From: Candidatus Latescibacterota bacterium
Lineage (GTDB): Bacteria; Latescibacterota; UBA2968; GCA-2709665
Direction of reading: 5' to 3'
NCBI GenBank assembly: GCA_965116875.1
Contig: OZ220733.1
Coordinates: 3,168,001-3,232,000 of the forward strand
Length of the DNA: 64,000 nucleotides
In this document: positions 4,476 to 22,316 of the stretch, one piece after another
How positions within the stretch are numbered: position 1 is the stretch's first letter
Layout: each line of letters opens with the position of its first letter
Made by a program: the position numbers and the translations under genes
Notes under the pieces: generated by a model
The model's input: the letters and a program-made list of their open reading frames with translations, nothing else
What the model was told of the DNA's origin: nothing
The model's database searches: none

Positions 4476-7400
4476 GTGAACCGACGGGTTTTTCAACGGT
4501 CGATTCGATGGCTGACGCCGGCCGCGTTTTTTCTTTCGTTGGCGGTCTTTGTCACCCCCTGGTCGCCATCTTCGCAGTCCACCGGCTTTTCGCTTTCCCT
4601 GGATCTGAACGAAGCCACGGGCGACCAAGCGGTTTCCTCGCTCGACCTCCTTCCCGGTCAGCCATTCTCCGTACAGATGTTCGCCACGGATATTCAGAGC
4701 GCTCAGGGTGTTTCCGCGCGTTTGCGTTTCGACGCATCCCAGGTCGTATACGAGGAGCTCGATCCCGGCGATGCGCTGCCGAACGTGCAGGCCGTTGCCC
4801 GGCAGGATTCCACGTCGCTCCGGGTCAGCGTGTCTTCGCTTGGCGGATCGGCAACGGTCAGCGAAGGTTGGGTCGCCACGCTGCGTTTCCGCACGACCGC
4901 CGCATTTACAGACACGGAAGTGTGGCTGGTGGACGCCGAACGTACACGCGGCGGTCAGACCGAGACCGTCTCGCTTGCCGTTGGCGTGGCGCTGCAGGTT
5001 GTGGCGCCGCCATCTCCGGACTTCGACGGCAACGGCATGGTGGGCTTCTCCGACTTCGTGGCGTTCGCCAGGTTCTTCGGGGCTCGGCGTGGCGACGCCA
5101 AGTACGCCGCGCCGTACGATCTGAACCACGACGAAGAGATCGCGTTCGAAGATTTCGTAATATTCGCCAGAAGCTTCGGAGAATCGGTGAACCGTGCGCC
5201 GGTTTTCGCAGAACCAGCGCCCCTGACGCGTTCCGTGATGGAGAACACGTCCGGCGGTGAGCCGATCGGCGATCCCGTCACGGCCACGGACGCCGACGGC
5301 GATTCTATCACGTACGGGCTGCGCGGCGTTCACGCGGACAGCTTTGCGATCGGCGCGGACACGGGTCAGCTCTTCGCACGGGAGGGAGTCGCGTACGACC
5401 ATGAAGGCAACGACACCTATTCCGTGACCGTCCGCGCAGCCGACGGCCGGGGGGGCCGCGCGACGGTTGCGGTGGACATCACCGTCGCCGACGTGGACGA
5501 ACCTCCCTCAGCGGCGCCAGACAGCGTGCGGGTGGCCTCCCGCGACACCGCGCTGGCCGTGACTTGGCTCGCGGCGATCGACGAGCCGGGCAGACCGCCT
5601 GTGAGCGGGTACGAGGTGGGGCACAAGGTGGAAGAAGCCGAGATTTGGCCGGGCGGGCTGCTGGTGGAGGGCCGCGCGGGAACGAGCGTCACGTTAGCAG
5701 GCCTGACCAACGATCAGGCGTACCAGGTACGGGTACGCACGTTGAACGACGAGGGAAGGGGACCATGGTCGGCGCCAGTCGCCGGCGTGCCCGCGGTGGG
5801 GCCCAGGCCTCGCGGCGAATTGCGCGACCAGACGGCGCTCATCGGCCGCGATCTGGAAATCAACCTTGCCAGCCTCTTCACGCGACCCGCACGGGGGACG
5901 TGGACCTTTGGCGCGACGTCTTCCAACGAGGGGGTGGCCACGGTCGCGGTGTCGGATACGATGGCGGTGGTGCGCGGCGTCGTCCCAGGGCGCACGACCA
6001 TCACCGCTACCGCAAGCAACAGGTATGGCAACAGTTCATGGACCACCTTCGACGTGGTGGTCACGACACCCCCAGCCCCACCGCCGCCGCCTCCTCCAAC
6101 GACGCCGCCGCCGCCTCCTCCAACGACGCCGCCGCCACCTCCTCCAACCACGCCGCCGCCACCTCCTCCTCCGCCCCAGGACACGCCGACGGTTTCCTCG
6201 ATCACCTTCACGTCCACCCCGGCATCGGGGCAGAATGGCACGTACAAGCTGGGCGACTTGATTTCCGTAACCGCGTCCTTTAGCGAAGCGGTCACGGTCA
6301 CCGGCACGCCGCAGGTCGACCTGAGGATCGGTTCCACTTTGCGGAGGGCCAACTATGCGAGCGGCTCCTCGACGAGCGCGCTCCTGTTTCAGTATACCGT
6401 ACAGGCCACCGACGAGGACACCGACGGGGCGACCATCAACGCGAACGGGCTCAAGCTCAACAATGGCAGCATCAGGAAAAACAATACGACGACGAGCGCT
6501 CAGCTTGGGCACGGGGCAGAGGTGAATCAATCCGCCCACAAGGTGGATGGAATGGTACCGGCGCTGACCGGCGCGGCGGTAACGGGCGACAAGCTGACCC
6601 TGTCTTACGGGGAGGCGCTCGACGACGATCCGATTCCGGCGAACGGCGATTTCGCAGTTACCGTAGAAGGGACCGCGCGCAACGTCGCAGCGGTCGGCGT
6701 GAACGGCAGCGCGGTGACGCTCACCCTCGCCTCTGCCGCAATCCTGGGCGAGACGGTGAGGCTGACCTACACGCCCGGGACCCACCCGATCCGCGACCTG
6801 GCGCAGAACCCGGCAGGCGCGTACGCCAACGGAACTGTTGTCAACCTGACCGGTGGCGTATGCGACCGCACTCCGCAGGTGAGTGACGCGATCGTTGAGG
6901 CGGCAGGCGCGAGCGATTGCAATGCGGTCACGGCCGCGCATCTGTGGGCGATAACAGAACTCCCTCTGAATGAAAGGGATATCTCAGCGTTGAAAACTGG
7001 TGATTTTTCCGGTTTGACAGCGCTGGCAAAGCTCAATCTGGCGGGCAACAGGTTAAGCACGCTACCCGCGAACCTCTTCTCTGATTTGCCTGCGATAAAC
7101 CTGGTCAGCTTGCGCGAAAACAACATCAGCACGCTTCCGGCCAGCCTATTCTCGAATCCGTCACCGCTCAAGGATCTTGATCTGACACATAACGTCCTGT
7201 CAGGCATCAATAAGTCCACGTTTTCGGGATTGACGGCACTGGAGCGCATTGGCCTGGCAAATAACCGCCTTCAAGAGAGTTCTCTTCCGTCAGGCATATT
7301 CGCAAGCTTGCCTTCACTCAAATTCATCAATCTGGGCACCAACCATTTCCCCGACATCACCGCAGATTTCTTCTCCGACCTGACGGGTTTGGAAATCCTC

Positions 7401-10400
7401 TATCTGACCGACGTTGGCCTCACCACGCTGACCGGGGATCTTTTCTCCAATCTGTCCTCGCTCAATATTCTCAGTCTGTCGCATAACGATATATCGAGCG
7501 TGAGTGCGAACGCGTTCTCGGGGCTGACGTCACTGGAATATCTTTGGATGGACTTCGCCGATCTCGAATCAAGCGTTCTTCCATCGGGGGTATTCTCAAG
7601 CTTGACATCGCTGCGGACGCTGTCACTCAGGGTTAACCGACTGGAGAGCCTACCCGCAGGAGTATTCCTTGGGCTGACTTCTTTGACAGATCTTCACGTT
7701 TCCGAGAACCCGATCGACCCCTTGCCCATTACGATATCGCTGGAGCGGATCGATGACGGACAGTTCAATGCGAGCGCGCACACCGGCGCGCCGTTCAACG
7801 TGACGCTGCCACTTCAGCTGGTCAACGGTTCGGTCAGCGGCGGCGCAGCCAGCATTGTCATTCCCCGCGGCAGGCTGGAAAGCGACGCCGTCACGGTAAC
7901 CCGAACAGTCGGATCCATCGGCGCCGTCACAGTCGACATCGAGTCGCTGCCGGTACCGCCGCCCCCTCCGGACCACCGGGGCTATGCGCTCGTGAGACCC
8001 AACGACGAACCGCTTGAAGTTCTGGCCCCGGTTCCCAAAGTGATCATCTACCCGACCGCCGTTACCGTGGCGGCGGGATACAGCAACGTCTACAGAGTCG
8101 CGCTGAACGCGCAGCCGACGGCGGACGTGACGGTCAGTGTGAACGCCCCCTCGAATAGCGAATTCTCGGTTTACCCCACGGAGCGGACGTTTACTCCCGT
8201 AACGTTCGACATGTTGCAAATCGTGACAGTGGCTGCCGATACCGATGCGGTGGCTGCAGACGCGGTCGCGATCAGCCATGCCGTCAGCGGCGGGAACTAT
8301 CATGATCTTGACGTTGATGACGTGGTCGTGACCGTCGCGGCAGCCCCGAGCACCAGCCAGTCGCCCGTATTCACCAGCGGCGGCACTTTCGATATCAAGG
8401 AGAATGAAACCGAGGTCGGTACGGTGGTCGCGATGGATCCGGACGCGATAGACTACGTTACCGGCTATGAGATCAGCGGCGGAGACCACCAGGCGCAGTT
8501 TGCCGTCTCGGACGAGGGTGCGTTGTCGTTCATCCATGCTCCTGATTTCGAGCGACCCGTCGCGACCGGCAACGTATATGCAGTCGAGGTCACTGCGACC
8601 AGCGGCATGGACGCAAGGCAAAGGGACGCAACCCAGACGATACAGGTCAACGTCGAAGACGTGGAGGAACGCCCGGGAACGCCGCCTGCGCCGGTTTTGA
8701 GTGTTCGCCAGCAATCACGGGAGATAGCTGTCGGCCCGAGTTCGAGTCCGACCGAAAATACAGGACCCGACGTCACGTCGTGGGACATACGGTACCGTGT
8801 CAAGGACAACCGCCATCTCCACAGCCATACCACCGTCGCGGAACCGAATTGGGAGTTCGTGATCCAGCACGCGGTGGCATCCTGGGTCTACGAGGCGCAG
8901 GTGCGCGCTGAGAGTGACGAGGGAGTCAGTGACTGGTCTCCTTTCGCCGAGGCGACGATTCCGAACGAACAACCTGTCGCCAATGGTTCCATCAACGATT
9001 TGACGCTGCCGGCCGGTGGTGCTGCCGAGGTTGTCACCGTCGATGGCGTTTTCGCCGATCCCGATGGATTCAGGCTCACGGCCTCCTCGAGCAATGAAAC
9101 GGTCGCCGCAGCAGGAATGTACGGCAATGCAGTGATGGTCGATCCCCTCAGCGCCGGCAGTGCGACCATTACGTTGACTGCGACCGATCCGTGGGGGCTT
9201 TCGGGTTCGTACAGTTTCGATGCGACGATACAGACGCCGTCGCTACAGGCCCCCACGCTCAGCATTGCTGACAGCGTCGCGACTCTTGGTTTCACGGATG
9301 CTTTCCTTGCGCTCGAAACCCGCGCCTATGACGTCAGAATCCGGCACAAGACCCCCACGGGGCCGTGGGCAGTCGGGTGCATCAGCATAACGAATCCGGA
9401 GGAAAACTCCGCGGCCATCACCACGTCGCGGGATATCACCGCCTCAGGCTTCTTCGAACCCGGCACCCTCTATGAGGCGGACTACATTTACCTGGGGAGC
9501 GGATGTGAATCGAGCGCTGCGGGACTCTCTTCAGCCGCTGCAGAGGCGACCACATCCGGAACCCCTTCGTTCGATATCGAAACCGTCTTCCCGGAAGGGC
9601 CCCCGTCTTCGGATCACCTGGCCGTGATTGAAGCGGCCGTCGCAAGATGGGAACGCATCGTCACCCACGACGTTCCCAACTATCGGCTGTCTGCAACGCA
9701 GATCAGTCAGTTGAAGGCCACATATCCCGGCGTCACGGTACCTGAGGTCGTTGACGACGTGATCATCTTCATACGGATAGGTTCCTATAGCTATGTTTCG
9801 GCGTTGCACCGCCTCGAACTGCGCCCATCCGTGTCGTCCTTGCCGTGGCAATCCGAAATCTCAATTGGATCGCCGTATATCTTCGTTTCTGTCCTTTCTC
9901 AGCGGATCGGCCACTCGATGGGTTTCCACGAAAGCGTGTGGAAGCATCACTACCTGTTGCAGCACGAGTCCAGTTCGGGCCGTCCCCTACCCCAACCCGA
10001 CACGCATTTCTCCGGCGCCGCGGCTATCGACGCCTTCGATGCGGCAGGCGGAACGAGCTACCCGGACGCAAAGGTACCCGTGGAAAACGAGAGAGATTGG
10101 GCCTGGAACCATTCCTGGAGGGTGGACGTGTTCCCGGCGTCCAGAGAATTGATGGGACCGTACGCCGGAGCGTCACTCAGTGCAATCACGATCCAGGCGA
10201 TGGCCGATCTGGGCTATCGCGTTGACGTCACGCAGGCCGACCCATACACCCTTCCCTTGTCAGGCTTGTCCAAGGTAACAGAGGATCTCCTTGAAGAGGC
10301 ATTACCGGAAGGCCCCGAAGGTCAAATCTACCTTGACTTCGTCGCAGAACAACGCGAACACGCGGTCGTCGAATCCACCCCGTTTGTCCTGACGGTGATC

Positions 10401-10421
10401 AACAGCTCGGAGAGCGATTAG
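4476..10421 (+). CDS. Giant secreted protein: cohesin-like, dockerin/EF-hand, cadherin, FN3, Ig-like, Pro-rich linker, SwmB-like, LRR, cadherin, FN3, C-terminal leishmanolysin(M8)-like domain
   Basis: 1981-aa ORF; RBS GGAGG; signal-like N-terminus; PDFDGNGMVGFSDF..YDLNHDEEIAFEDF; DADGD/NRAPVF cadherin motifs; 24-aa LRRs LPANLFSDL/VSANAFSGL; KVPVENE..ELM..LSAITIQAMADLGY. Confidence 0.85.
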   Translation: MNRRVFQRSIRWLTPAAFFLSLAVFVTPWSPSSQSTGFSLSLDLNEATGDQAVSSLDLLPGQPFSVQMFATDIQSAQGVSARLRFDASQVVYEELDPGDALPNVQAVARQDSTSLRVSVSSLGGSATVSEGWVATLRFRTTAAFTDTEVWLVDAERTRGGQTETVSLAVGVALQVVAPPSPDFDGNGMVGFSDFVAFARFFGARRGDAKYAAPYDLNHDEEIAFEDFVIFARSFGESVNRAPVFAEPAPLTRSVMENTSGGEPIGDPVTATDADGDSITYGLRGVHADSFAIGADTGQLFAREGVAYDHEGNDTYSVTVRAADGRGGRATVAVDITVADVDEPPSAAPDSVRVASRDTALAVTWLAAIDEPGRPPVSGYEVGHKVEEAEIWPGGLLVEGRAGTSVTLAGLTNDQAYQVRVRTLNDEGRGPWSAPVAGVPAVGPRPRGELRDQTALIGRDLEINLASLFTRPARGTWTFGATSSNEGVATVAVSDTMAVVRGVVPGRTTITATASNRYGNSSWTTFDVVVTTPPAPPPPPPPTTPPPPPPTTPPPPPPTTPPPPPPPPQDTPTVSSITFTSTPASGQNGTYKLGDLISVTASFSEAVTVTGTPQVDLRIGSTLRRANYASGSSTSALLFQYTVQATDEDTDGATINANGLKLNNGSIRKNNTTTSAQLGHGAEVNQSAHKVDGMVPALTGAAVTGDKLTLSYGEALDDDPIPANGDFAVTVEGTARNVAAVGVNGSAVTLTLASAAILGETVRLTYTPGTHPIRDLAQNPAGAYANGTVVNLTGGVCDRTPQVSDAIVEAAGASDCNAVTAAHLWAITELPLNERDISALKTGDFSGLTALAKLNLAGNRLSTLPANLFSDLPAINLVSLRENNISTLPASLFSNPSPLKDLDLTHNVLSGINKSTFSGLTALERIGLANNRLQESSLPSGIFASLPSLKFINLGTNHFPDITADFFSDLTGLEILYLTDVGLTTLTGDLFSNLSSLNILSLSHNDISSVSANAFSGLTSLEYLWMDFADLESSVLPSGVFSSLTSLRTLSLRVNRLESLPAGVFLGLTSLTDLHVSENPIDPLPITISLERIDDGQFNASAHTGAPFNVTLPLQLVNGSVSGGAASIVIPRGRLESDAVTVTRTVGSIGAVTVDIESLPVPPPPPDHRGYALVRPNDEPLEVLAPVPKVIIYPTAVTVAAGYSNVYRVALNAQPTADVTVSVNAPSNSEFSVYPTERTFTPVTFDMLQIVTVAADTDAVAADAVAISHAVSGGNYHDLDVDDVVVTVAAAPSTSQSPVFTSGGTFDIKENETEVGTVVAMDPDAIDYVTGYEISGGDHQAQFAVSDEGALSFIHAPDFERPVATGNVYAVEVTATSGMDARQRDATQTIQVNVEDVEERPGTPPAPVLSVRQQSREIAVGPSSSPTENTGPDVTSWDIRYRVKDNRHLHSHTTVAEPNWEFVIQHAVASWVYEAQVRAESDEGVSDWSPFAEATIPNEQPVANGSINDLTLPAGGAAEVVTVDGVFADPDGFRLTASSSNETVAAAGMYGNAVMVDPLSAGSATITLTATDPWGLSGSYSFDATIQTPSLQAPTLSIADSVATLGFTDAFLALETRAYDVRIRHKTPTGPWAVGCISITNPEENSAAITTSRDITASGFFEPGTLYEADYIYLGSGCESSAAGLSSAAAEATTSGTPSFDIETVFPEGPPSSDHLAVIEAAVARWERIVTHDVPNYRLSATQISQLKATYPGVTVPEVVDDVIIFIRIGSYSYVSALHRLELRPSVSSLPWQSEISIGSPYIFVSVLSQRIGHSMGFHESVWKHHYLLQHESSSGRPLPQPDTHFSGAAAIDAFDAAGGTSYPDAKVPVENERDWAWNHSWRVDVFPASRELMGPYAGASLSAITIQAMADLGYRVDVTQADPYTLPLSGLSKVTEDLLEEALPEGPEGQIYLDFVAEQREHAVVESTPFVLTVINSSESD
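6081..6176 (+). repeat. 24-nt tandem repeat encoding (PPPPPPTT)n linker
   Basis: CCGCCGCCGCCTCCTCCAACGACG-like unit, three copies plus a poly-Pro tail. Confidence 0.85.
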
Positions 10422-10681: not shown

Positions 10682-10755
10682 GTAGGGGCGTCCCTTGTGG
10701 GCGCCCGCACCGTTAAGAACCGGTCTGAAAGTGGGGCAGACATTCCTGTCTGCCC
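10682..10755 (+). repeat. REP doublet (BIME-like), copy 2
   Basis: GTAGGGGCGTCCCTTGTGGGCGCCC and GTGGGGCAGACATTCCTGTCTGCCC with starts 49 bp apart; conserved ACCGGTCTGAA spacer. Confidence 0.75.
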
Positions 10756-10823
10756 AGGTGCGCAGGACCAGTCTGCCACGTCCAAACCAAAACCTGCATA
10801 GGGCCACATCTCACCCAGATAAC

Positions 10824-13800
10824 ATGCTATCAACAAGCGTCCGGACCATTCCTGCAGTTTTGTTTCTGTCTTCAGCTCTAATCACTGTCGCAGCTGAAGC
10901 GCAAGGCTTCTTCCCTTCGTTTCGAACGCTGCAGGAGCCGTGTGAAAGCGGCGGCTATGACCCGACGCCGACGGAGATCACGGTCACGGCGGTTCCCATC
11001 GTGGTCACGTCTACGACCGACGACTACTTCGTCCTCTACGTGACGTTCGACCTGGACGGCACGGAGCTTCAGGTGCCGGTGGCGGTGACCCGGGGAGAGG
11101 CGGGCACGACCACGCTGTCGGAGAACCTGGCGGCCTTGCCCGCGGATCGCTATCGGGTGGAGAAGTACCTGATCGCCGACCCGGCCGACGTCGACGGCGA
11201 CTGCACCGACGACGTCACCGAACTCGACAACATGGGGAGCATGAACCCGGTCAATCCTGCCACGATTCCGGATCCGAACGACGGCGTTGTGGCAGTCCCC
11301 GACCTCGCAGCGTTCCAGACCCAGGGAACCGGGGTCTACAGGGGAACGGTAGTGAAGTTCGTTCTGCTGAACCTGGATACCGCGCATCCGGCGGTTTACA
11401 TCATGAACACGAAGCTGCACCGGAGCCACCAGCCCTTTTTTGACGCGGTGGGCCTGGCGAGAGAGGGAGCGATTACCGGCACCATCACCTACGATCCGGG
11501 ACTCACGGTTCCAGGCGGCGAGGTTGATCGTTTCTACTACAAATACTTCCCGCGGCTGGCCGGGGAGTCCGTCCCTCGCGCAGAGCTGGTGCACACCGTA
11601 CTCGCTGCCAGCCTGGGGTTCCTCGACGACAACCTCACCCTGCACGTCGAAAGCGTTCTGCTTCCCCTTATCCAGGAACGGTTGCCCCAGCTTCGGGCGT
11701 CCCGGATCCCCCTGGTGTACGATTCCGACCTCTTCGGCGACGTGGAGTTCCTGGCGCTCAACACCGGGACGGGCTACGGGCGGCTAAGGATCCTGGGTGC
11801 AGACGAACGCCCCCATCCTCGCGACATCATCGCCCTGGCAACGCTGCCCAACGAGCTGCCCCGCGTGGCCGGCATCCTCACCGCCGCGCCCCAGACGCCG
11901 CTTTCGCACGTGAACCTGCGCGCAGTGCAGGACGGCATCCCCAACGCCTACGCGAAGGACGCCCTCGACCACGCCGACGTGATTTCCCTCGAGGGGAGCT
12001 ACGTCCGGTACGAAGTGACGGAGCGCCGGTGGGAATTGCGGGCGGCGACCCTCCAGGAAGTGGAGGACCACTACGAGTCGTCCCGCCCCGCCGGGACCCA
12101 GACGCCGGAACGCGATCTCTCGATCACAGAGATTACACCGCTCAGCCAGATTGGCTTCGACGACTGGAAGGCGTTCGGCGTCAAGGCTGCCAATCTGGCG
12201 GTGCTACGTACGCTCGGATTCCCGGAGGGCACCGTGCGCGACGGATTCGCCATCCCCTTCTATTTCTACGGCGAGTTCATGAAGCAGCCCCTGGGAGAGG
12301 AGACCGTCTTCGGCAGGGGGAGCGCACCCGATGAGGAAAAGCTCACCCTGGCGGCCGACACGATGCTCGTCGAGGCCGTCGAGGCGATCCTGGCCCATCC
12401 GAGGTTCCAGACCGACCTGGATATCCAGGTCGAGATGCTCGACGACCTGCGAGACGCCATCAAGGACGCGCAGGCGCCCCAATGGATCATCGACGCTCTC
12501 ACCACGATGCATACGACGTTCCCCGCTGGGACGTCGCTGCGCTACCGCTCCAGCACGAACAACGAGGACCTGCCGGGTTTCAACGGCGCGGGACTGTACG
12601 ACTCGAAGACGCAGCATCCGGACGAGACCATAGAAGACGGCATTGACAAGTCGTTCAAGCAGGTACTCGCCGGCCTGTGGACCTTCCGGGCGTTCTCGGA
12701 GCGGGAGTTTCACCGCGTCGACCACCTCGCAGCCGCGATGGGCGTGCTGGTCCATCCCAATTTCTCCGATGAACTGGTGAACGGGGTGGCCGTCAGCTTC
12801 GACCCCGCCACTTCCATTGTGGGCCGACACTACGTCAACTCGCAGGTAGGCGAGGATCTGGTCACCAATCCCGAAGCGTACTCCGTTCCCGAAGAGATCG
12901 TTCTCCTGCCGGGCGATGGCCTTTCCGTTCGAGCATTCTCAAACCTGGTTGAACCGGGCGAGTTGCTGATGAGCCAGGACCAGATGCGCCAACTGCGCGA
13001 GAACCTCAAGGTGATCCACGACCACTTCGAGGGGTTGTACAACCCGGCGCCTGGTGAGCCATTCGCTATGGAGATCGAGTTCAAGATTACCAGCGAGAAC
13101 ATCCTCGCGATCAAGCAGGCTCGCCCCTGGGTCTTCGGCGAGAGCGCGAGCGAGCCGCCACCGCCTCCACCCCCTCCGCCACCGCCGCCCCCGCCCCCTC
13201 CACCTCCCCCGCCTCCGCCTCCACCACCACCGCCGCCACCACCTCCGCCAACACCGCCCCTCCCTCCGGTGTCTCCCACGGTGACGGGTGTGTTTACGAC
13301 GAGCGTCGCGTTGCAATGGAAGACGCCGACCGGCGACGGTCCTCTGATCAGGAACTACGACGTGCGCTACCGTGACGGCGGCGACGGGGAGTGGGCGGAC
13401 GGCCCTCAGGACGTGAGGGGTACCAGCACCACCATAGAGGGTCTGGACCCGGATACGGAATACGAAGTGCAGGTGCGGTCGAGCGGCAACTCGGATCACA
13501 GCGCGTGGATGTCCCTGGAGCCGGTGCGTACGCTTGCGCCGCCGCCCCCGCCGGTGGAACCCGCGGTGACACAGACGTCGCCGGGCAGCGTGACCATCGG
13601 CTGGACGGCCCCGGCCACCGGTGACGGGCTGATCGTTACGGGCTATGACGTGCGGTACCGTGAAGGCGGCGAGGGTGAATGGAAGGATGGGCCTCAGGAC
13701 GTGACGGTCACGAGCGCGATCATCGAGGGACTGGACCCCGACACGGAATTCGAGGTTCAGGTGCGGTCGAACAGCGCTGGCGGCGACGGCGACTGGCTGA

Positions 13801-14756
13801 CCCTTGGGCTGGTGCGTACGGACGTCCTGGTGCTGTATGACCTGTTCTCCTTCTGTCTGGACCTGGATGCGTCGGAGAAAGACCAGCACCTCTGGACGAT
13901 GGGTGTGGCACCCGGTCGGGTCGTGTCCATACAGGTTTTCGGGGCGGATATCCGGGGAACGCGCAGCGTCGATCTGCGGGTGGGCTATGACACGACACAG
14001 GTTGTGTTCGAGGGCTTCGACGCGGGCGATGCGCTGCCGGGTGCGACGGCGCTGGTGGCAAGGGATTCGACGATCGTGGAGATCGGTGTTTCGTCTCTGG
14101 GCGGCGCTGCTCTGGTGGACAGCGGGCACGTGGGCACGGTGCGGTTCAGGACGATGGAGGGGCTTACGGAGACGGAGGTCCGGTTGGCGGGAGCGGACCT
14201 GGTACGTGGGGAGCATCCGGAGGCGATGACGCGCAGTGTGAGCGTATTGCTTCATGCTCCCGCGCCGCCATCGCCTGATTTCGATGGGAGCGGTTTGGTG
14301 GGCTTCGCCGACTTTGTGCTGTTTTCCGGTGCGTTCGGATACCGCGAGGGTGACGACGGGTACCAGTCGGGATACGACCTGACCGGGGACGGCCAGATCA
14401 CGTTTGCCGATTTCGTGGCGTTCGCCGGGCGCTTTGGAGAAAGCATGAACCGCAATCCTGTGTTTGCGCCCGATCTGCCCACAACGCTTGTCGTGGCCGC
14501 CGGAACGTCACCGGGAGAGCCGATCGGGGACCCCATCGCAGCGACTGACGAGGACGGGGATCCGCTTACGTACACCCTGTGGGGCGCCGACGCGGAGCAC
14601 TTCGACGTCGACCCCACATCCGGGCAGTTGTTGACGAAGGGCGCGTATGACGTCATCAAGAAACGCGGATATACCGTGATCGTGCGGGCACTCGACGGGA
14701 ACGGGGGCAGCGCAAACACCGTCATACCTATCCTGATCGCAGACAATTCCGGGTAA
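10824..14756 (+). CDS. Secreted PPDK/PEP-synthase-superfamily dikinase (His domain then nucleotide-binding domain) fused to poly-Pro, 2x FN3, cohesin-like, dockerin/EF-hand and cadherin
   Basis: Signal-like MLSTSVRTIPAVLFLSSALITVAAEA; AGILTAAPQTPLSHVNLRA; FGVKAANLA; RSSTNNEDLPGFNGAGLYDS; EIEFK..IKQARP; ATG 10824 preferred because the upstream in-frame part runs through REP DNA. Confidence 0.8.
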   Translation: MLSTSVRTIPAVLFLSSALITVAAEAQGFFPSFRTLQEPCESGGYDPTPTEITVTAVPIVVTSTTDDYFVLYVTFDLDGTELQVPVAVTRGEAGTTTLSENLAALPADRYRVEKYLIADPADVDGDCTDDVTELDNMGSMNPVNPATIPDPNDGVVAVPDLAAFQTQGTGVYRGTVVKFVLLNLDTAHPAVYIMNTKLHRSHQPFFDAVGLAREGAITGTITYDPGLTVPGGEVDRFYYKYFPRLAGESVPRAELVHTVLAASLGFLDDNLTLHVESVLLPLIQERLPQLRASRIPLVYDSDLFGDVEFLALNTGTGYGRLRILGADERPHPRDIIALATLPNELPRVAGILTAAPQTPLSHVNLRAVQDGIPNAYAKDALDHADVISLEGSYVRYEVTERRWELRAATLQEVEDHYESSRPAGTQTPERDLSITEITPLSQIGFDDWKAFGVKAANLAVLRTLGFPEGTVRDGFAIPFYFYGEFMKQPLGEETVFGRGSAPDEEKLTLAADTMLVEAVEAILAHPRFQTDLDIQVEMLDDLRDAIKDAQAPQWIIDALTTMHTTFPAGTSLRYRSSTNNEDLPGFNGAGLYDSKTQHPDETIEDGIDKSFKQVLAGLWTFRAFSEREFHRVDHLAAAMGVLVHPNFSDELVNGVAVSFDPATSIVGRHYVNSQVGEDLVTNPEAYSVPEEIVLLPGDGLSVRAFSNLVEPGELLMSQDQMRQLRENLKVIHDHFEGLYNPAPGEPFAMEIEFKITSENILAIKQARPWVFGESASEPPPPPPPPPPPPPPPPPPPPPPPPPPPPPPPPTPPLPPVSPTVTGVFTTSVALQWKTPTGDGPLIRNYDVRYRDGGDGEWADGPQDVRGTSTTIEGLDPDTEYEVQVRSSGNSDHSAWMSLEPVRTLAPPPPPVEPAVTQTSPGSVTIGWTAPATGDGLIVTGYDVRYREGGEGEWKDGPQDVTVTSAIIEGLDPDTEFEVQVRSNSAGGDGDWLTLGLVRTDVLVLYDLFSFCLDLDASEKDQHLWTMGVAPGRVVSIQVFGADIRGTRSVDLRVGYDTTQVVFEGFDAGDALPGATALVARDSTIVEIGVSSLGGAALVDSGHVGTVRFRTMEGLTETEVRLAGADLVRGEHPEAMTRSVSVLLHAPAPPSPDFDGSGLVGFADFVLFSGAFGYREGDDGYQSGYDLTGDGQITFADFVAFAGRFGESMNRNPVFAPDLPTTLVVAAGTSPGEPIGDPIAATDEDGDPLTYTLWGADAEHFDVDPTSGQLLTKGAYDVIKKRGYTVIVRALDGNGGSANTVIPILIADNSG
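13155..13250 (+). repeat. 32 consecutive proline codons
   Basis: Uninterrupted CCN run from 13155 to 13250 using all four Pro codons. Confidence 0.9.
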
Positions 14757-14844: not shown

Positions 14845-16593
14845 TCACAGATCGACCTTGATCTCCTCTTCGAAGGCAGTGATCGACTCCCACCGCTGAA
14901 CGACGCCGTCTCCGTCGTTTTCGAAAACAGCCAGTTCCTGGGTAACGCCCGCCTTTCCATCCAGGCTGAGACGTGCAGACCTGCCGTCGGGCGTGGACGC
15001 GGCCGCGATCCACGATTCGTCCCGGGAGCGGGTGTACTCCGCGGCTTCGTCGTGGCCCACGCCCCGGATATCGAATCGTTCCGTCCGCTGCGCCACCAGC
15101 GACAGCCACCGGTCGATCTCCTTGAGCGAAAGCACACCGAACTTCTGCTCGTGGGTCGTGATCTCCGAGAAGAACCCGCTGTCCAGCGCCAGGCGGACCG
15201 AGCCGGCCGCCCGTTCCGCGGCCTTGTCCATATCGTTGGTCGGATTGTCCCCGGCCCACGTCGTGCAGCCCGTGAGCACGTCGGGCTCCACGAGATGGCG
15301 GGGAAGCATGGCGCCGATGTTGTACATCTCCGGGTCTTCGGGGATATAGTCGTAGAACAGGCTGTTGAGACCGTAGGGCCACCAGTTGGGGAACAGCCGC
15401 TCCCACTTCACCTGCCCCAGATGGTAGGTTGAATAGACGAACGTCCGCCCCCGGTCCTTCAGAAAGGGCAGAACGCGCACGCCAACCTCGCCCCAGTGAA
15501 ACGCGGCGCGGCGGGGCGGCTTCAGGCCCCGTTCGTCGTACCATTGGTCCACCCGCTCGAAGATCTCCTTCAACTGAGCCTCGCTGTACTCCCCGATGCC
15601 GAAATCGAACGGTATCAGCTTGTAGTAGTCGAATGCGTGCGCGTCCCAGTCCACCTGTCCCGCCCTGTAACGCTCGCGCATGAACGGTACGACTTCGTCC
15701 GGAACGAGATCCAGGAAGCAGGAGACCATCGGGCGGTAACCGTGCCGGTTCATCACCTCCGTATAGCGGAAATCGTGGCGTCCCCTGCCGTCGTCCACCC
15801 GGATGGTCACGTAGGGCGGCATCATCTGCGCGACGAACGGCTTTCGCGCCGCCCAGACGATGGCGCGCCAGAAGAAGGCGTCCAGCCCCATCGCGTGGCC
15901 CAGGAACTCCTGGTGCCAGACGCGGGGCGAACAGGCAAACTGCACGGCGCGGCCGCTGCCGCAGACCCCGGCCAGCACGGCCGGAAACTGGTCCGGCTCG
16001 TAGGCCGTGCCCGGCACGTTGTGGCGGGAGAAAATGAGCTGGTCCTTGCCCATCGCCGCCTGCGCCAGTTCCACAACGTGCCGCCCCACTCCCCTGATCT
16101 GCGCAATGGTCACGGGTCGCTTCAGCCGGACCATACTACCCGCCTGCTGCGTCCAGTTGATGAAGTGGTCGCTGCTTCCGATGCGGAACAGGTCCGATGC
16201 CATTGGAATCCGGTCGACCTCCAGTCCCAACAGCCGAAGCAGCGGCGGCTTGTACAGCCGCAGTTCACCGTCGAAATTGACCAGGCCCATCCCGGCCTCT
16301 TCCACACCCGCGGCGAGCAGTTCCGTCTCTTCGTACGATAGGGATTCGCCCAGGCGCGCCTGTGCGACAACGACCGCGGCGCAGCCGTCGAGCAGTTCGG
16401 CGGTCAGCGGTCCGGCCGCAAGATCGTGGATCCTGAAAGGAAACCCGAAATGCTGCAAGGCCACCAGTACGGTCTGATCCACGATGCTCGTATCCGTATA
16501 GCTGCCCCGGCTGTCCGCCAGTACCAACAGGGCCCGGTTGCCGGTGCTCTCGCGCCGGGGGCGCTGCACCATTTGTCGCGGTGAGAATCGCAT
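14845..16593 (-). CDS. Hypothetical protein, possible carbohydrate deacetylase (NodB-like barrel) C-terminal region
   Basis: Long ORF with high GC3; VTIRVDD and DAHAFD resemble NodB-type metal motifs; start at MRFSPRQ after AGGGAA. Confidence 0.55.
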   Translation of the reverse strand: MRFSPRQMVQRPRRESTGNRALLVLADSRGSYTDTSIVDQTVLVALQHFGFPFRIHDLAAGPLTAELLDGCAAVVVAQARLGESLSYEETELLAAGVEEAGMGLVNFDGELRLYKPPLLRLLGLEVDRIPMASDLFRIGSSDHFINWTQQAGSMVRLKRPVTIAQIRGVGRHVVELAQAAMGKDQLIFSRHNVPGTAYEPDQFPAVLAGVCGSGRAVQFACSPRVWHQEFLGHAMGLDAFFWRAIVWAARKPFVAQMMPPYVTIRVDDGRGRHDFRYTEVMNRHGYRPMVSCFLDLVPDEVVPFMRERYRAGQVDWDAHAFDYYKLIPFDFGIGEYSEAQLKEIFERVDQWYDERGLKPPRRAAFHWGEVGVRVLPFLKDRGRTFVYSTYHLGQVKWERLFPNWWPYGLNSLFYDYIPEDPEMYNIGAMLPRHLVEPDVLTGCTTWAGDNPTNDMDKAAERAAGSVRLALDSGFFSEITTHEQKFGVLSLKEIDRWLSLVAQRTERFDIRGVGHDEAAEYTRSRDESWIAAASTPDGRSARLSLDGKAGVTQELAVFENDGDGVVQRWESITAFEEEIKVDL

Positions 16594-16711
16594 CAGTGGT
16601 GTTTCCCTGGTTAACAGTTTCGGCGAAGGCGTGGATTCAGCGATTCGACACTGGATGACGAAATCGGCGAACACTTGACGGACACATATCGCCAGCGGTT
16701 ATCGCAAAGCA

Positions 16712-17550: not shown

Positions 17551-20500
17551 TCAGAAACGGCTTCCCGGCCGGAATCGCGCCGTAGGCGGTGTCTGTTCGA
17601 AGGCGTTGGTGAAGGCGATAAAATCTCCGAATCCGACCGTTCCGTCGCCGTCGAGGTCATAGCGCATATCGGTGGAACCGTATGCCCGCGCGAAGAGGAG
17701 GAAGTCGGCAAAGTCAACCGCGCCGTCGCCGTTGAAATCGGCCCGGCCATCTGTAGGCGGAGGCGGTGGGGGTGGAGGTGGAGGCGGGACCGGCGGGGAC
17801 TCGCGTTGATATTCCGGGGGGAAGTCTACGGTGAGTTGAAGGATGCTGTTGTTGTTCGTGTCGGCAACGTAGACCCTGCCCTCCGGATCCTTGGCGAGGC
17901 CCGACGGCGAATTCAGCGTCGTCTCGGTACCGGCGCCTTCGGCCTGGTTGAATCCCGGAAATCCCGTACCGGCCACGGTCTGTATGATGCCCAGGGTCAG
18001 GTCCAGCACCCGTATCCGATGGTTGCCGGTGTCCGCGATGTAGAGGTATCCGTTGTTGTCCACCGCCACGTCAACCGGGCCGTTCAGCAGGGCCGTTTTG
18101 CCGGGTCCGCCGTCGCCGGAAAAGCCGGCGTCTCCGGTACCGGCCACCGTGGAGATAAGGCCCTCGGCGTCCACCATCCGGATGCGATGGTTGCCCGTAT
18201 CGGCGATGAACAGGCGCCCCCGGCTGTCCGCGGCAACGCCCTCGGGCCCGTTCAGCGCCGCCATCGTAGCGGGTTCTCCATCGCCCGCGTAACCCTCCTG
18301 AAAGCTGCCGGCAGCGGTGGAGATGATGCCGCCGGCGTCCACCTTGCGGACCCTGTGATTGAAGCGTTCCGCAATCCAGACGTTTCCCTGCGGGTCCGCC
18401 GCTACACCCACGGGACCAGACAGATTCGCATCCGCCGCCGCGCGCCCGTCGCCTCCGTAACCCGGGATGTCCCTGCCGGCGAAGGCGAGGATGTCCTCGC
18501 TTGAAAGGTCGATCCGGCGCACGATATGACCGCTCACTTCACCAACGATCAGATCGCCGTCCGGAATGAGCGCGAGGCCCCGGGGATCACCGAGACTGGC
18601 TTCTGTTGCCGGTCCCCCCGTGCCGATGGAAATCCCGATTCCATCTCCTGCGATCGTGTTGATCGAGCCATCCGCGTCGACCCGTCGCACCCGGTTGTTG
18701 CCCGAATCGGCGATGTAGAGGACGCCGTCTGCTGCGACCGCGACGCCCCTCGGGGTGTTCAGGAACGCCTGGTCGGCGTTGCCGCCGTCACCCCCGAAGC
18801 TGCTCTGGCTCCCGCCGATTCCGGCGAGGGTGCGTATGGACGTGTGGTCCGGCCCGATGGGCGGCAGCAGGCTGATCGTGATCCGTCCGGGGGGAAGGCG
18901 CTGGAACCGCGCGACTGCGGATACGTCGCCGGGCGTTGTACCGGCCTGAAAGAGGATGGATGCCATCCCGTCCCTCACCACCGCCGTATCGCTCCCGACG
19001 AAGGCGCCGTCACCGGATGAAACGCTGAAGATCAGGGGACGGTTGCCGATGAGCGTGACTTCGTCCCTGGCGTCCAGGATGCGGGCGCGGATTCGCGTTT
19101 GCGCCTCGCCGTTGGCCGCCAGGACGGGCACAGCGGCATCCAGCGCGACGCGTTCGGGCGGGGGTGGGGCCGTTTCGGTGACTTCAAGGACGGTGTTCAC
19201 GGCGATGTTCCTGAGGCGCTGTGCGATACCCGACGGCCATCGAACGGTCAGGGTATCCACCCGGTCGGCGTCGCCCAGGCCGAAGACTGCCGTCAGGGCG
19301 TCCTGGGAAAGATAGGACGCGCCGCCCGTGATCTCCCGGGTCGCGGCGTTGCCATCGAAGGCGATTTCGAATCGCGTGCCGATGGCATCCGGGCTGCTCC
19401 TCGTGGCGCGCGGGCGAATGGCCAGCCAGTTTCCATTGAACTCCCGGTTCCGGTAAAGATGGTCGGCGCCGTCCTGAACGACCACGAAGATGTCCAGCCC
19501 GCCGTCCCCGTTGAAGTCCGCCAGGGCCACGCCGCGGCTGTTGGCGCCGCCCGCCACGCGGAAGGAATCAGCCATGTCCGTGAAGGTCCCGCCTTCGTTC
19601 CGGTAGAGATTGTTCTTCCCGCCGGCATTGGAGACGAAGAGGTCCAGATCTCCGTCGCTGTCGAAATCACCCCAGACTGCGCCCCTGCTGTCCACGGTGT
19701 CCGGTCCCGCCACGTCGAAACTGCTGCTGGACTCCTCGAAACGGCCATTGGTATTGACATAGAGGCGGTTGCCTTCGCCGAAGTACGTCACGTACAGATC
19801 CAGGTCCCTGTCGTTGTCGAAATCGCCCCAGGCCGCGCCGAAGCTGGGACCGCCCAGTCCGAGTTCCTCCAGGCCCGCGTCCGACGATGCGTCCGCAAAG
19901 CTGCCGCCGTCGTTTCTGAAGAGTCGATTCGGCCCGCTGTTGGCAAGGAAGAGATCCGGGTCGCCGTCGCCGTCGTAGTCCGCCCACGCCGGCTGCAGGC
20001 TGCTGTTGTCGTCGTCCAGACCGGCATCCGCGGCGGCTTCGACAAAGCGTCCCCCTTCATTCCGGTAGTACCGGTTTTCGCCGAAGTTGGCCACGTAGAG
20101 GTCGGGGTCTCCGTCTCCTTCCACGTCCGCCCATGCGGCGCCGTATCCGTCTCCGGCGTCGTCCACTCCGGCTTGTGCGGCGATTTCGGAGAATCGGCTG
20201 CCATCGTTGCGGTAGAGCCGGTTGGGCTGTCCGAAATTCGTGACGTACAGGTCCAGGTCGCCGTCGCCGTCAACGTCCGCCCAGGCGGCCGCGCTGCCGT
20301 CGCCGTCGTCCGCCACGCCAACCACGGAGGCCACCTCCGTAAAGCCGTCGCCGTCGTTCCGGTAGAGCAGGTTGGACTGCAGACTGCGCACCACGTAGAG
20401 ATCGGGATCTCCGTCTCCGTCGTAATCCGCCCAGGCCGCGCCGAAACCGGCGCCCTCATCGGCCATGCCGCCGACATTCGCCACGTCGAGAAAACCGCCC

Positions 20501-22284
20501 GGCCTGGACTCCCTGCCGAATCCCCGGAGGGGTATTTTCAGCTCCGGGTCGTTCGGATCGTTGCTGTACAGGGTGAGTTCCGCCCGCTGCATCCCTGTGT
20601 TGACCGGACGGAAAACGACGTCCAGGCTCTGTCTCAGGCTCGACGGGATGCGCAGGGTATCGTCCAGACTGACGGAGAATTGTACCGGGTCCGTCAGTTC
20701 GGCGCGGAAGACGGTCAGAACGCCCGCGCCGAGGTTTGCAACCCGCAGGACGGTTGACTGCTCGCGGCCCACGTACGTACGATCGAATTCGATGCTTTCC
20801 GGGAACACACCGATGTCCGGCGCCGCGCCCGTTCCCGAGAGAGGTACGGTGAGCTCGGGACGCCATGGATCGTCGGTAATGACCGTGAGCGTTCCCTGCA
20901 CGACGCCTTCGTCCAATGGGCTGAACCGCACCTGAATCTCAATCTCCCCGGACGGATCGATTTCGATTGGAAACGCGTTCAGGAGGACGAACTCCTGCCG
21001 GTCGGTCGAAGCGCCGGACAGCGTGAGGGTGCGCCTCCCCACGTTTCCGACCGTAAACGTGCGCGTCACCTGGTCTTCCACGACGACCGCACCGAAGTCG
21101 ACTCGGGCGGCAGTCAGACGGAGAACGGGCGACTGAAAGGCGGGATCGAGGAGTTTTCGGATACGGCTGTTGCCCGTATCCACGACGATCAGGTCACCGT
21201 CGGGGTCCAGAACCACGCGAGAGGGCCCGCGGAGTTCGGCCAGCGGCGCCGGTCCGCCGTCGCCGGCGGACCCGAAATCGCCTGTGCCCGCCAGGGTGAA
21301 GATGTTCCCTGTTCCTGGGTCCACGGCCCGGACGCGGTTATTGCCGGTATCCGAGATATAGAGGGTTCCGTCCGCGCCCACGGCCACGCCGCCGGGCAGA
21401 TCGAGCCGCGCGTCGGTGGCCGGGCCGCCGTCGCCAGAGAATGCGCCGCCGCCGCCGAAAATGGGTCCGCGGCCGGCCACGGTGCTGATAATGCCTGTCT
21501 GACCGTCGATACGCCTGATGCGATAATTGTTGAAGTCCGCGATGAAGATATTTCCCGACGCGTCCACCGCAACGCCTTCTACCGTCAGTCCCGCTTCCAC
21601 CGCCGGGCCGTCGTCGCCGCCGAATGAGAAATCACCGTCGCCCGCAAGGGTGGCAATCACGCCGGTATCGAGGTCGATCCTCCGCACCCGGTTGTTGCCC
21701 CGGGCCTGTCCGTCCAGCCCGTCTGCAACATAGAGTCCGCCGCGGGGGCCCATCGCCAGGGCGACGATTTCACCGAGTACGGCGGAGACGGCCGGGCCTC
21801 CGTCGCCGTCGAAACCAAACTCGCCGCTGCCCGCGATTGTGGTGATGATCCCCGTGACGGCGTCGATGCGCCGGATGCGCCGGTTGCCCGTATCGCCGAT
21901 GTACACGTTGCCGGCCCCGTCAACCGCGACGCCCTGGGGCCTGTCCAGCTCCGCTTCGGTGGCGGGTCCGCCGTCGCCGGAGAATCCGGCTTCTCCGGTA
22001 CCGGCCAGGGTCGTGATTCGCCCGGTGACCGCATCCACCCTGCGGATGCGGTGCGTGCCGGTATCGGCGATATAGACGTGACCATCGGCGTCGGCAGCAG
22101 CGCCCAGGGGGACGCTCAGGGCAAGGTCCGTCGCGGGGATATTCTCGCCTTCCCGGTCGCCGCCGCCGGCAATGGTAATCAGCGAACCGCGATTCTGGGC
22201 GAATGACGCGTCGGCCAGGGCGAGCAGGAAACAAAGGACGAACGGTATTCTGCAGTTTTTTCGTATGATGCGCATAGACTGCAT
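17551..22284 (-). CDS. Giant secreted protein: NHL propeller, two ASH/Ig-like domains, FG-GAP/CRTAC1 with ASPIC-UnbV, Ig-like, second NHL propeller, Pro linker, C-terminal dockerin/EF-hand
   Basis: YIADTGNHRIR/GDGGPATxA repeats; WADYDGDGDPDLYV repeats; GASYLSQD..FGLG..VRWPSG; ADFNGDGAVDFADF..YDLDGDGTVGFGDF; signal FVLCFLLALADASFA; start 22284 or 22275 avoids overlap with the upstream gene. Confidence 0.85.
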   Translation of the reverse strand: MQSMRIIRKNCRIPFVLCFLLALADASFAQNRGSLITIAGGGDREGENIPATDLALSVPLGAAADADGHVYIADTGTHRIRRVDAVTGRITTLAGTGEAGFSGDGGPATEAELDRPQGVAVDGAGNVYIGDTGNRRIRRIDAVTGIITTIAGSGEFGFDGDGGPAVSAVLGEIVALAMGPRGGLYVADGLDGQARGNNRVRRIDLDTGVIATLAGDGDFSFGGDDGPAVEAGLTVEGVAVDASGNIFIADFNNYRIRRIDGQTGIISTVAGRGPIFGGGGAFSGDGGPATDARLDLPGGVAVGADGTLYISDTGNNRVRAVDPGTGNIFTLAGTGDFGSAGDGGPAPLAELRGPSRVVLDPDGDLIVVDTGNSRIRKLLDPAFQSPVLRLTAARVDFGAVVVEDQVTRTFTVGNVGRRTLTLSGASTDRQEFVLLNAFPIEIDPSGEIEIQVRFSPLDEGVVQGTLTVITDDPWRPELTVPLSGTGAAPDIGVFPESIEFDRTYVGREQSTVLRVANLGAGVLTVFRAELTDPVQFSVSLDDTLRIPSSLRQSLDVVFRPVNTGMQRAELTLYSNDPNDPELKIPLRGFGRESRPGGFLDVANVGGMADEGAGFGAAWADYDGDGDPDLYVVRSLQSNLLYRNDGDGFTEVASVVGVADDGDGSAAAWADVDGDGDLDLYVTNFGQPNRLYRNDGSRFSEIAAQAGVDDAGDGYGAAWADVEGDGDPDLYVANFGENRYYRNEGGRFVEAAADAGLDDDNSSLQPAWADYDGDGDPDLFLANSGPNRLFRNDGGSFADASSDAGLEELGLGGPSFGAAWGDFDNDRDLDLYVTYFGEGNRLYVNTNGRFEESSSSFDVAGPDTVDSRGAVWGDFDSDGDLDLFVSNAGGKNNLYRNEGGTFTDMADSFRVAGGANSRGVALADFNGDGGLDIFVVVQDGADHLYRNREFNGNWLAIRPRATRSSPDAIGTRFEIAFDGNAATREITGGASYLSQDALTAVFGLGDADRVDTLTVRWPSGIAQRLRNIAVNTVLEVTETAPPPPERVALDAAVPVLAANGEAQTRIRARILDARDEVTLIGNRPLIFSVSSGDGAFVGSDTAVVRDGMASILFQAGTTPGDVSAVARFQRLPPGRITISLLPPIGPDHTSIRTLAGIGGSQSSFGGDGGNADQAFLNTPRGVAVAADGVLYIADSGNNRVRRVDADGSINTIAGDGIGISIGTGGPATEASLGDPRGLALIPDGDLIVGEVSGHIVRRIDLSSEDILAFAGRDIPGYGGDGRAAADANLSGPVGVAADPQGNVWIAERFNHRVRKVDAGGIISTAAGSFQEGYAGDGEPATMAALNGPEGVAADSRGRLFIADTGNHRIRMVDAEGLISTVAGTGDAGFSGDGGPGKTALLNGPVDVAVDNNGYLYIADTGNHRIRVLDLTLGIIQTVAGTGFPGFNQAEGAGTETTLNSPSGLAKDPEGRVYVADTNNNSILQLTVDFPPEYQRESPPVPPPPPPPPPPPTDGRADFNGDGAVDFADFLLFARAYGSTDMRYDLDGDGTVGFGDFIAFTNAFEQTPPTARFRPGSRF

Positions 22285-22316
22285 TCGGGCGACAACCCGC
22301 TGTATGGCCGCCGGGC

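Follow-up and report, generated by a model that had tools for sequence, protein, structure and literature searches.

The window analyzed here is a 64,000-nucleotide stretch from the genome of a Candidatus Latescibacterota bacterium (assembly GCA_965116875.1, contig OZ220733.1, positions 3,168,001 to 3,232,000 of the forward strand). Within it, a long plus-strand open reading frame (ORF) spans 10695..14756 and contains a gene whose predicted product resembles dikinases that use a phosphorylated histidine. The earliest ATG of this ORF, at 10824, gives a protein of 1310 amino acids and is taken here as the start; an in-frame TTG at 10695 is an alternative. A relative that is 88% identical (locus L002) has an ATG in the position equivalent to 10824. 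The motifs quoted in an earlier note on this DNA, AGILTAAPQTPLSHVNLRA, FGVKAANL, RSSTNNEDLPGFNGAGLYDS, and IKQARP, are all present in the translation, and the histidine codon that the note placed at 11907 is that of His362 (10824 + 361 × 3 = 11907). Roughly 120 bases 5' of the start (window positions 10700-10823; 7870-7991 in L002) are conserved about as well as the coding part. This segment could be a leader or regulatory region, or it could be coding sequence that begins at the upstream TTG.

The gene and the predicted parts of its product are as follows.

10824..14756, plus strand: dikinase-like gene, 1310 amino acids and a stop codon, with the start taken at the first ATG
10824..10907, plus strand: signal-peptide-like N-terminus, residues 1-28, ending AEA/QG (from the sequence)
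10956..11177, plus strand: D1, a beta-sandwich, residues ~45-118 (AlphaFold2)
11178..11228, plus strand: acidic DPADVDGDCTDD loop, residues 119-135, containing Cys127 (sequence and conservation)
11229..11735, plus strand: D2, an alpha/beta domain, residues ~136-304 (AlphaFold2)
11736..12113, plus strand: putative phosphohistidine domain of the swivel type, residues ~305-430, with the His362 codon at 11907-11909 (AlphaFold2, conservation, profile matches)
12156..13151, plus strand: ATP-grasp nucleotide-binding domain (PPDK_N), residues 445-776 (Pfam, VIA-align, conservation)
13152..13274, plus strand: proline-rich linker with a run of ~34 Pro (translation)
13275..13796, plus strand: two fn3 domains, residues 818-897 and 909-991 (Pfam fn3, E 6.1e-24)
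13908..14711, plus strand: C-terminal cassette with cohesin-like (~1029-1115), dockerin/EF-hand-like (~1150-1204), and cadherin-like (~1238-1296) parts (weak Pfam matches)

The predicted layout starts with a Sec-type N-terminus and a head of ~750 residues, behind which follow the proline linker, the pair of fn3 domains, and the cohesin-/dockerin-/cadherin-like cassette. An AlphaFold2 model of residues 1-779, built with a 33-sequence alignment, has a mean predicted local distance difference test score (pLDDT) of 86.0 and a predicted template modeling score (pTM) of 0.78; pLDDT drops below 50 only at residues 1-37 and 772-779. In this model the head consists of four folded parts, namely D1, D2, the His domain, and the ATP-grasp domain.

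The Pfam model PPDK_N scores 50.3 bits (E 2.8e-13; cut-off 27) at residues 451-770, where positions 4-310 of its 328 are covered. By VIA-align, the modeled ATP-grasp domain superposes on the AMPPNP-bound rifampin phosphotransferase (RPH) of Listeria (LmRPH, 5hv1) with a Z score of 29.2 and a root-mean-square deviation (rmsd) of 2.3 Å over 292 residues, and Foldseek assigns this pair an E-value of 4.3e-15. The corresponding Z scores are 28.1 for phosphoenolpyruvate synthase (PEPS, 2ols) and 20.1 for pyruvate phosphate dikinase (PPDK, 1dik). The near-full Pfam match and the superpositions on RPH and PEPS agree with the earlier description of the ATP-grasp domain as intact. The phosphoenolpyruvate (PEP)/pyruvate barrel was said to be missing, and indeed no Pfam match to it occurs in the protein.

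The His domain, which the earlier note expected to fold as a swivel-type domain, does so in the model. It spans residues 309-420 there and has seven strands and three helices, and His362 begins a short helix (residues 362-370). Model residues 308-412 align with the N-terminal domain of Enzyme I-Ntr (5t12; Z 9.3, rmsd 4.0, 97 residues), which presumably carries a phosphohistidine subdomain. GWD1_pHisD (PF22973), named for the plant glucan-water dikinase GWD1, is the only recurrent Pfam match; it reaches E <= 1 in 21 of 86 family segments versus 4 of 86 for the next family. It also matches 3/3 of the compact relatives tested. When a 126-sequence profile of the family and its compact sister was compared by hhalign with a 26-sequence profile of PEP-utilizers, the two aligned over 99 columns (E 0.004), with His362 in register with the catalytic His. 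Both features of the dikinase superfamily, a PPDK_N grasp with its nucleotide and Mg residues and a His domain of swivel fold, are found in this head.

Conservation was assessed with 274 copies of the dikinase-like module from retrieved proteins, aligned to a model numbered as the query. His362 is kept in 263/265 copies. In the ATP-grasp domain, K454 is kept in 265/266, R575 in 265/265, E750 in 255/259 (four copies have Asp), E752 in 257/259, Q765 in 258/258, and R767 in 256/258. Across the family there is almost no variation at the residues through which RPH, PEPS, and PPDK contact the nucleotide and Mg. These numbers bear on whether the head might be a noncatalytic relic, or a binding module, carried on an adhesin. 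That it is embedded in adhesin-like proteins would suit such a role. However, conservation reaches at least 95% in 124 of the 330 columns of the ATP-grasp domain and in 27 of the 90 columns of the His domain, every catalytic position checked is among them, and this conservation holds across proteins that are just 28-32% identical overall. We consider a relic or binding module very improbable.

The N-terminal MLSTSVRTIPAVLFLSSALITVAAEAQG is hydrophobic with A-x-A at its end, as expected from the earlier reading of this segment as signal-like, and residues 1-37 are detached from the fold with low confidence (pLDDT <50). A heuristic of our own, based on hydrophobicity and charge, was used to call signal-like N-termini across the family. 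By this measure 164 of 264 family proteins pass, versus 0 of 30 classical PPDK orthologues, and most failures are gene calls that start inside the module. Among shorter members (n=33), four carry a type IX secretion system (T9SS) tail, and CHU_C, SLH, and CW_binding_2 each occur once. All 15 of 15 long relatives carry cadherin, fn3, leucine-rich repeat (LRR), or other Ig-type domains, some with Calx-beta in addition. The module resides at the start, middle, or end of carriers of up to 3769 amino acids. One long relative is fused to two sulfatase domains and another to a glucose/sorbosone dehydrogenase; these sulfatase and sugar dehydrogenase fusions are a hint of glycans.

Because the start codon is not proven, the protein might instead be an ordinary cytoplasmic dikinase whose start has been miscalled. 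Such an enzyme would not be exported. However, the hydrophobic segment follows an ATG that is common to the 88% identical relative, four different kinds of export signal recur in the family, and the stalk domains are of extracellular types. Moreover, the genome has separate genes for a classical PPDK (884 amino acids) and an RPH-like protein (885 amino acids). The recurring export signals, the shared ATG, and the extracellular-type stalk led us to reject the miscalled-start explanation, which we regard as hardly credible.

The region between the signal-like segment and the His domain had been described as a single unassigned domain. That it lacks a Pfam match holds, as residues 29-339 have none even at E <= 10, and a phmmer search of the N-terminal 317 residues against the PDB produced one chance-level match (E 0.83). 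The region is not a single domain, however, and is instead modeled as the beta-sandwich D1 followed by the alpha/beta domain D2. D1, which by itself likewise has no Pfam match, is modeled with strands at residues 50-52, 59-63, 67-77, 80-90, 94-98, and 110-116 and a pLDDT of ~90 or more. In the acidic loop that follows D1, residues D122, D124, D126, and D130 are conserved in 246-248 of 247-248 copies. Cys40 and Cys127, the latter within the loop, are the only cysteines of the module and are conserved in 190/200 and 229/248 copies, respectively; a disulfide between them is likely, judging from this pattern.

D2 comprises ~170 residues with 6-7 strands and, when modeled alone with 62 sequences, gives a pLDDT of 84.1 and a pTM of 0.75. 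Searches of D2 against solved structures yielded a best E-value of 0.15 with Foldseek and a best Z score of 4.2 in a full VIA-align search, in which 0 of 48,161 chains reached Z >= 5. The typical best Z that VIA-align states for unmatched models is 7-8, and the value for D2 lies below this. The model of D2 thus appears to lack a convincing counterpart among solved structures, although a weak search result of this kind is no proof of a new fold. Within the module, conservation is lowest in D2 (13 of 205 columns at >=95%). Across both subfamilies (60 sequences), only K178, Y192, H202, and F205 are at least 95% conserved in D2, and the domain is a candidate site for acceptor binding and phosphoryl transfer.

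The earlier note had likened the placement of the His domain before the nucleotide domain to plant starch dikinases and set it apart from PPDK, PEPS, and RPH. The model shows this order, and the available text on plant GWD1 (StGWD1; PMC13553574) describes the same one. There, StGWD1 is laid out as CBM45_1, CBM45_2, a central domain, a His domain, and an ATP-binding domain, in an order that differs from those of PPDK and LmRPH. The central domain (residues 483-926; PDB 9HA9 and 9QVI) is all-helical, with 20 helices in 444 residues. The His domain (931-1050) has three helices and seven strands, with H992 on a short helix, and the ATP-binding domain (1069-1387) aligns better with LmRPH.

Compared with this description, the window's protein also has its His domain (305-430) ahead of a C-terminal ATP-grasp domain (445-776), and its His domain has the same make-up of three helices and seven strands, with His362 opening a short helix. 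Its ATP domain is likewise nearer to RPH than to PPDK, its His362 lies 84 residues before the grasp (77 in StGWD1), and a nonhomologous domain directly precedes the His domain. That preceding domain differs, being alpha/beta and of ~170 residues rather than all-helical and of 444, a difference judged from secondary-structure make-up. Pfam finds neither CBM45 nor CBM20, the N-terminal starch-binding modules of GWD and PWD, respectively, in the whole protein, and the protein is predicted to be exported, whereas GWD is plastidial. The earlier note also likened its motifs to those of GWD/PWD, but at the level of sequence the only link is the below-cut-off match to GWD1_pHisD. The dikinase protein would thus function in the manner of GWD without belonging to the GWD family, a comparison drawn from the published description of the plant enzyme.

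With LmRPH and the phenolic phosphate synthetase of Bacillus subtilis, the protein shares the ATP/His/water dikinase logic and the RSSxxxEDLP motif, and LmRPH is the best structural match of its ATP-grasp domain. RPH differs in having the ATP-grasp domain first, the His domain last, another acceptor domain, which binds rifampin, between these two, and a cytoplasmic location. The NCBIfam model NF041857 scores 29.4 bits against a cut-off of 999, and does so over the ATP-grasp domain only. With PEPS and PPDK the protein shares the PPDK_N grasp and the swiveling-His mechanism, but it has no TIM barrel (PF02896), the reverse domain order, and no PF00391 match. NCBIfam models of PEP synthase give partial matches to the ATP domain, at <=31 bits against cut-offs of >=598.

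A further comparison is with a compact sister family of ~680 amino acids that produced 2859 matches (for example, L122 2690-4723, minus strand, and proteins P0299-P0418) in Fibrobacterota, Myxococcota, and others. Its members have been named automatically as "pyruvate, water dikinase" or "PEP/pyruvate-binding domain-containing protein." They have in common with the window's protein a core of D2, His domain, and ATP-grasp domain that is 28-32% identical, with the same invariant residues, and they also appear to be exported; a hydrophobic N-terminus is present in 113 of 120 and a lipobox in at least 84. Unlike the window's protein, they lack D1, the acidic loop, and the stalk, are mostly lipoproteins, and are not tied to sponge lineages.

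On balance, we lean toward the view that the gene product is an exported, stalk-mounted histidine-swivel dikinase. By analogy with GWD1, RPH, PEPS, and PPDK, ATP would bind in the grasp and His362 would attack its beta-phosphate, after which AMP would leave and the gamma-phosphate would pass to water. The His domain would then pivot and transfer its phosphate to an acceptor at D2, near K178, Y192, and H202. A hydroxyl on a matrix polymer, or on a glycan from the host or the environment, may be this acceptor; the earlier note proposed that an extracellular polymer or a host molecule is phosphorylated with external ATP. The ATP would have to be supplied from outside the cell, presumably after release by the host or by lysed cells.

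Several observations weigh against an exported dikinase. The main difficulty is ATP supply, as useful amounts of ATP are not expected outside cells or in the periplasm, and no ATP source is encoded near the gene. Because D2 is without a known fold, it provides no pointer to the acceptor. Export itself is predicted from our heuristic and from the company of domains in which the module is found. Other points concern the His domain, whose structural match (Z 9.3) is moderate. In the window's protein, GWD1_pHisD scores E 0.0057 and 16.7 bits, below the cut-off of 27, and a scan of the genome with this Pfam model finds an equally weak match elsewhere. PEP-utilizers (PF00391) matches 0 of 86 family segments, and the corresponding genome scan recovers the PPDK, RPH-like, and PtsI-like genes and not the dikinase module. 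No signal was obtained when the His domain was compared by BLASTP with the genome's own PPDK and RPH-like proteins, or by hhalign with these as single sequences or with a 30-sequence PPDK profile. The 86-segment alignment, used as a profile query against the PDB, retrieved nothing, and GWD entries were never among the matches listed in PDB profile searches. In a sliding-window control of the hhalign comparison, made with a narrower profile, windows over the His gave E 0.08-0.1 and other windows 0.05-0.7. At the level of sequence, the evidence for the His domain is marginal.

If the acceptor were simply water, the protein would consume extracellular ATP, converting it to AMP and two phosphates, and might thereby quench a danger or purinergic signal of the host or scavenge phosphorus. 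This activity needs only the parts found, an intact ATP-grasp domain and the His; it accounts for export without a defined acceptor, D2 has no recognizable substrate-binding fold, and the host-associated habitat fits. However, the retention of K178, Y192, H202, and F205 in both subfamilies suggests a specific second half-reaction, and simpler ecto-nucleotidases do the same job elsewhere. We consider an ATP consumer unlikely.

The lack of a known ATP supply in the compartment could also mean that the fold serves another chemistry, either with a donor other than ATP or in making nucleotides, with a phosphorylated polymer or polyphosphate as one conceivable source. Reactions of the PPDK type are reversible, which would permit the latter. 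We nevertheless give this explanation little chance, as the nucleotide and Mg contact residues are near-invariant, the grasp superposes on AMPPNP-bound RPH at an rmsd of 2.3, and nothing points to another donor.

The ATP problem would disappear if the module acted inside a host or prey cell, which is rich in ATP, after uptake or translocation, with the stalk serving for contact only. Host cells do take up sponge symbionts, and the eukaryotic-like repeat proteins of these symbionts are proposed to interfere with phagocytosis, according to PMC11706023. Such a delivered effector is improbable in our judgment. The position of the module in its carriers varies among the N-terminus, the middle, and the C-terminus, no translocation domain and no immunity-like neighbor were seen, the members of the sister family are plain lipoproteins, and the single conserved cysteine pair suits an oxidizing compartment. 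A polymorphic toxin was also considered and was rejected on account of the variable module position and the missing immunity neighbor.

To our knowledge, all histidine-swivel dikinases described so far (PPDK, PEPS, RPH, and GWD) are intracellular enzymes. Activity of the module outside the cell would mean either that external polymers or host molecules are phosphorylated or that extracellular ATP is consumed, and either outcome, if true, would represent a new type of chemistry at the cell surface or between host and symbiont. A more far-reaching form of the exported-dikinase proposal, which we put forward only tentatively and think somewhat doubtful, is that this is the first extracellular dikinase. 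It would be a GWD-like machine on sponge symbionts and, through the sister family, on many other bacteria, which spends ATP leaked by host or prey on the phosphorylation of an external polymer, for instance a matrix glycan, with D2, of a fold not seen before, holding the acceptor. It could also be the long-sought prokaryotic relative of the plant starch dikinases, and the GWD-like domain order may bear on their origin.

The family is large. A word-indexed search gave 1796 matches among 8000 scored, the best 120 of which are 58-84% identical, and an exhaustive search of 50%-identity clusters gave 3300 at E <= 0.001 and at least 1084 at E <= 1e-30. A pattern search of species-representative genomes gave 604 matches, and 600 of these stretches encode a relative. 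Counts of neighbors and a tree were drawn from the best 80 of the 600 loci, all 80 from metagenome-assembled genomes (MAGs). The tree (FastTree) holds the window and 75 of the 80 loci; five were omitted, two of these for an aligned piece of <600 residues. Its labeled rows comprise 49 Chloroflexota, 17 Actinomycetota, 5 Acidobacteriota, 3 Latescibacterota, and 1 Thermodesulfobacteriota. The 88% identical relative comes from a Latescibacterota MAG, and both it and the window are placed among Chloroflexota rows. The phylum labels require 20 changes on the tree (minimum 4; shuffled mean 24.2), a value as low as which occurred in 1 of 200 shuffles. A caution against reading this pattern as exchange is that the labels come from MAG titles, and binning errors would inflate apparent transfer. 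Paralogy, as well as such errors, could add to the scrambling of the tree.

Of 168 Latescibacterota genomes searched, 17 carry the family-specific part, as do 4 of the 14 other genomes in the window's genus, and the window's own genome has one copy of the module. Titles among the relatives include several of Ca. Poriferisodalis and Aldehydirespiratoraceae. These groups hold sponge-symbiotic lineages rich in cadherin, LRR, fn3, and Calx-beta proteins, as reported in the available text of PMC11706023, in which no dikinase is mentioned. Four sponge-metagenome runs, from four studies, contain contigs that cover every one of the gene's 30 bins with a likeness of 85-99%. Beyond sponges, members that are 41-47% identical occur in Cryomorphaceae and Crocinitomicaceae MAGs and have T9SS tails. 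The presence of the module on cadherin, fn3, and LRR proteins of sponge symbionts, together with its movement between phyla, suggests a selected symbiosis trait. The distribution is best explained if the family is an accessory trait that sponge-associated bacteria from several phyla pass among themselves.

Some loci hold multiple modules within 18 kb, with three in L039 and two each in L003, L032, L037, and L051, and some single proteins, P0123 and P0124 among them, have two PPDK_N stretches. A same-genus relative (G079:C1:5323738-5324967) has a TGA within the match, and in another locus (L121 3048-6137) similarity is lost after the middle of the ATP-grasp domain, beside a transposase-like ORF. 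These two copies may have decayed.

Literature searches, supplements excluded, turned up no paper describing a dikinase that is exported, secreted, or a lipoprotein, and none dealing with PPDK_N in sponge symbionts. A mention of PPDK_N in bioRxiv 10.1101/2023.11.21.568195 concerns intracellular domains in the accessible part of that preprint. A term search of PMC7569903 for bacterial relatives gave no match, and a literature search for a GWD motif found no paper.

The stalk begins with the proline linker, whose run of proline codons (window positions 13153-13255) is of low complexity and was passed over as a repeat in read mapping; its length may vary between strains. The Pfam matches in the C-terminal cassette are weak (Cohesin, E 0.0055; EF-hand_1, E 0.00026; Cadherin, E 0.011). 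This cassette (window positions 13800-14753, plus strand) recurs at the start of the protein encoded by the upstream ORF 4476..10421 (plus strand), a 1981-amino-acid LRR/fn3/cadherin/SWM-repeat protein, to whose N-terminus it is 48% identical over 302 amino acids (E 2e-91). The pair of fn3 domains and the homology of the cassette to this adhesin-like neighbor confirm the adhesin stalk proposed at the outset. Mutual binding of the cohesin-like and dockerin-like parts, if it occurs, could let both neighbors assemble on the surface in the style of a cellulosome. The C-terminus of the dikinase protein has no obvious anchor.

Apart from repeat proteins and shadow ORFs, no neighboring family occurs in more than 10 of the 80 loci. 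In the window, the neighbors are RecD2, Sua5, a 609-amino-acid ORF, and an NHL/FG-GAP giant; they are of housekeeping or repeat-protein type. The 609-amino-acid ORF (14845-16674, minus strand) lies directly downstream on the opposite strand and has no Pfam match at E <= 1e-4. The giant, an ORF of 1617 amino acids (17551-22404, minus strand), contains NHL, FG-GAP, ASPIC/UnbV, and Ig-like (ASH/HYDIN) repeats and is a further eukaryotic-like repeat protein of the type reported to be enriched in sponge symbionts.

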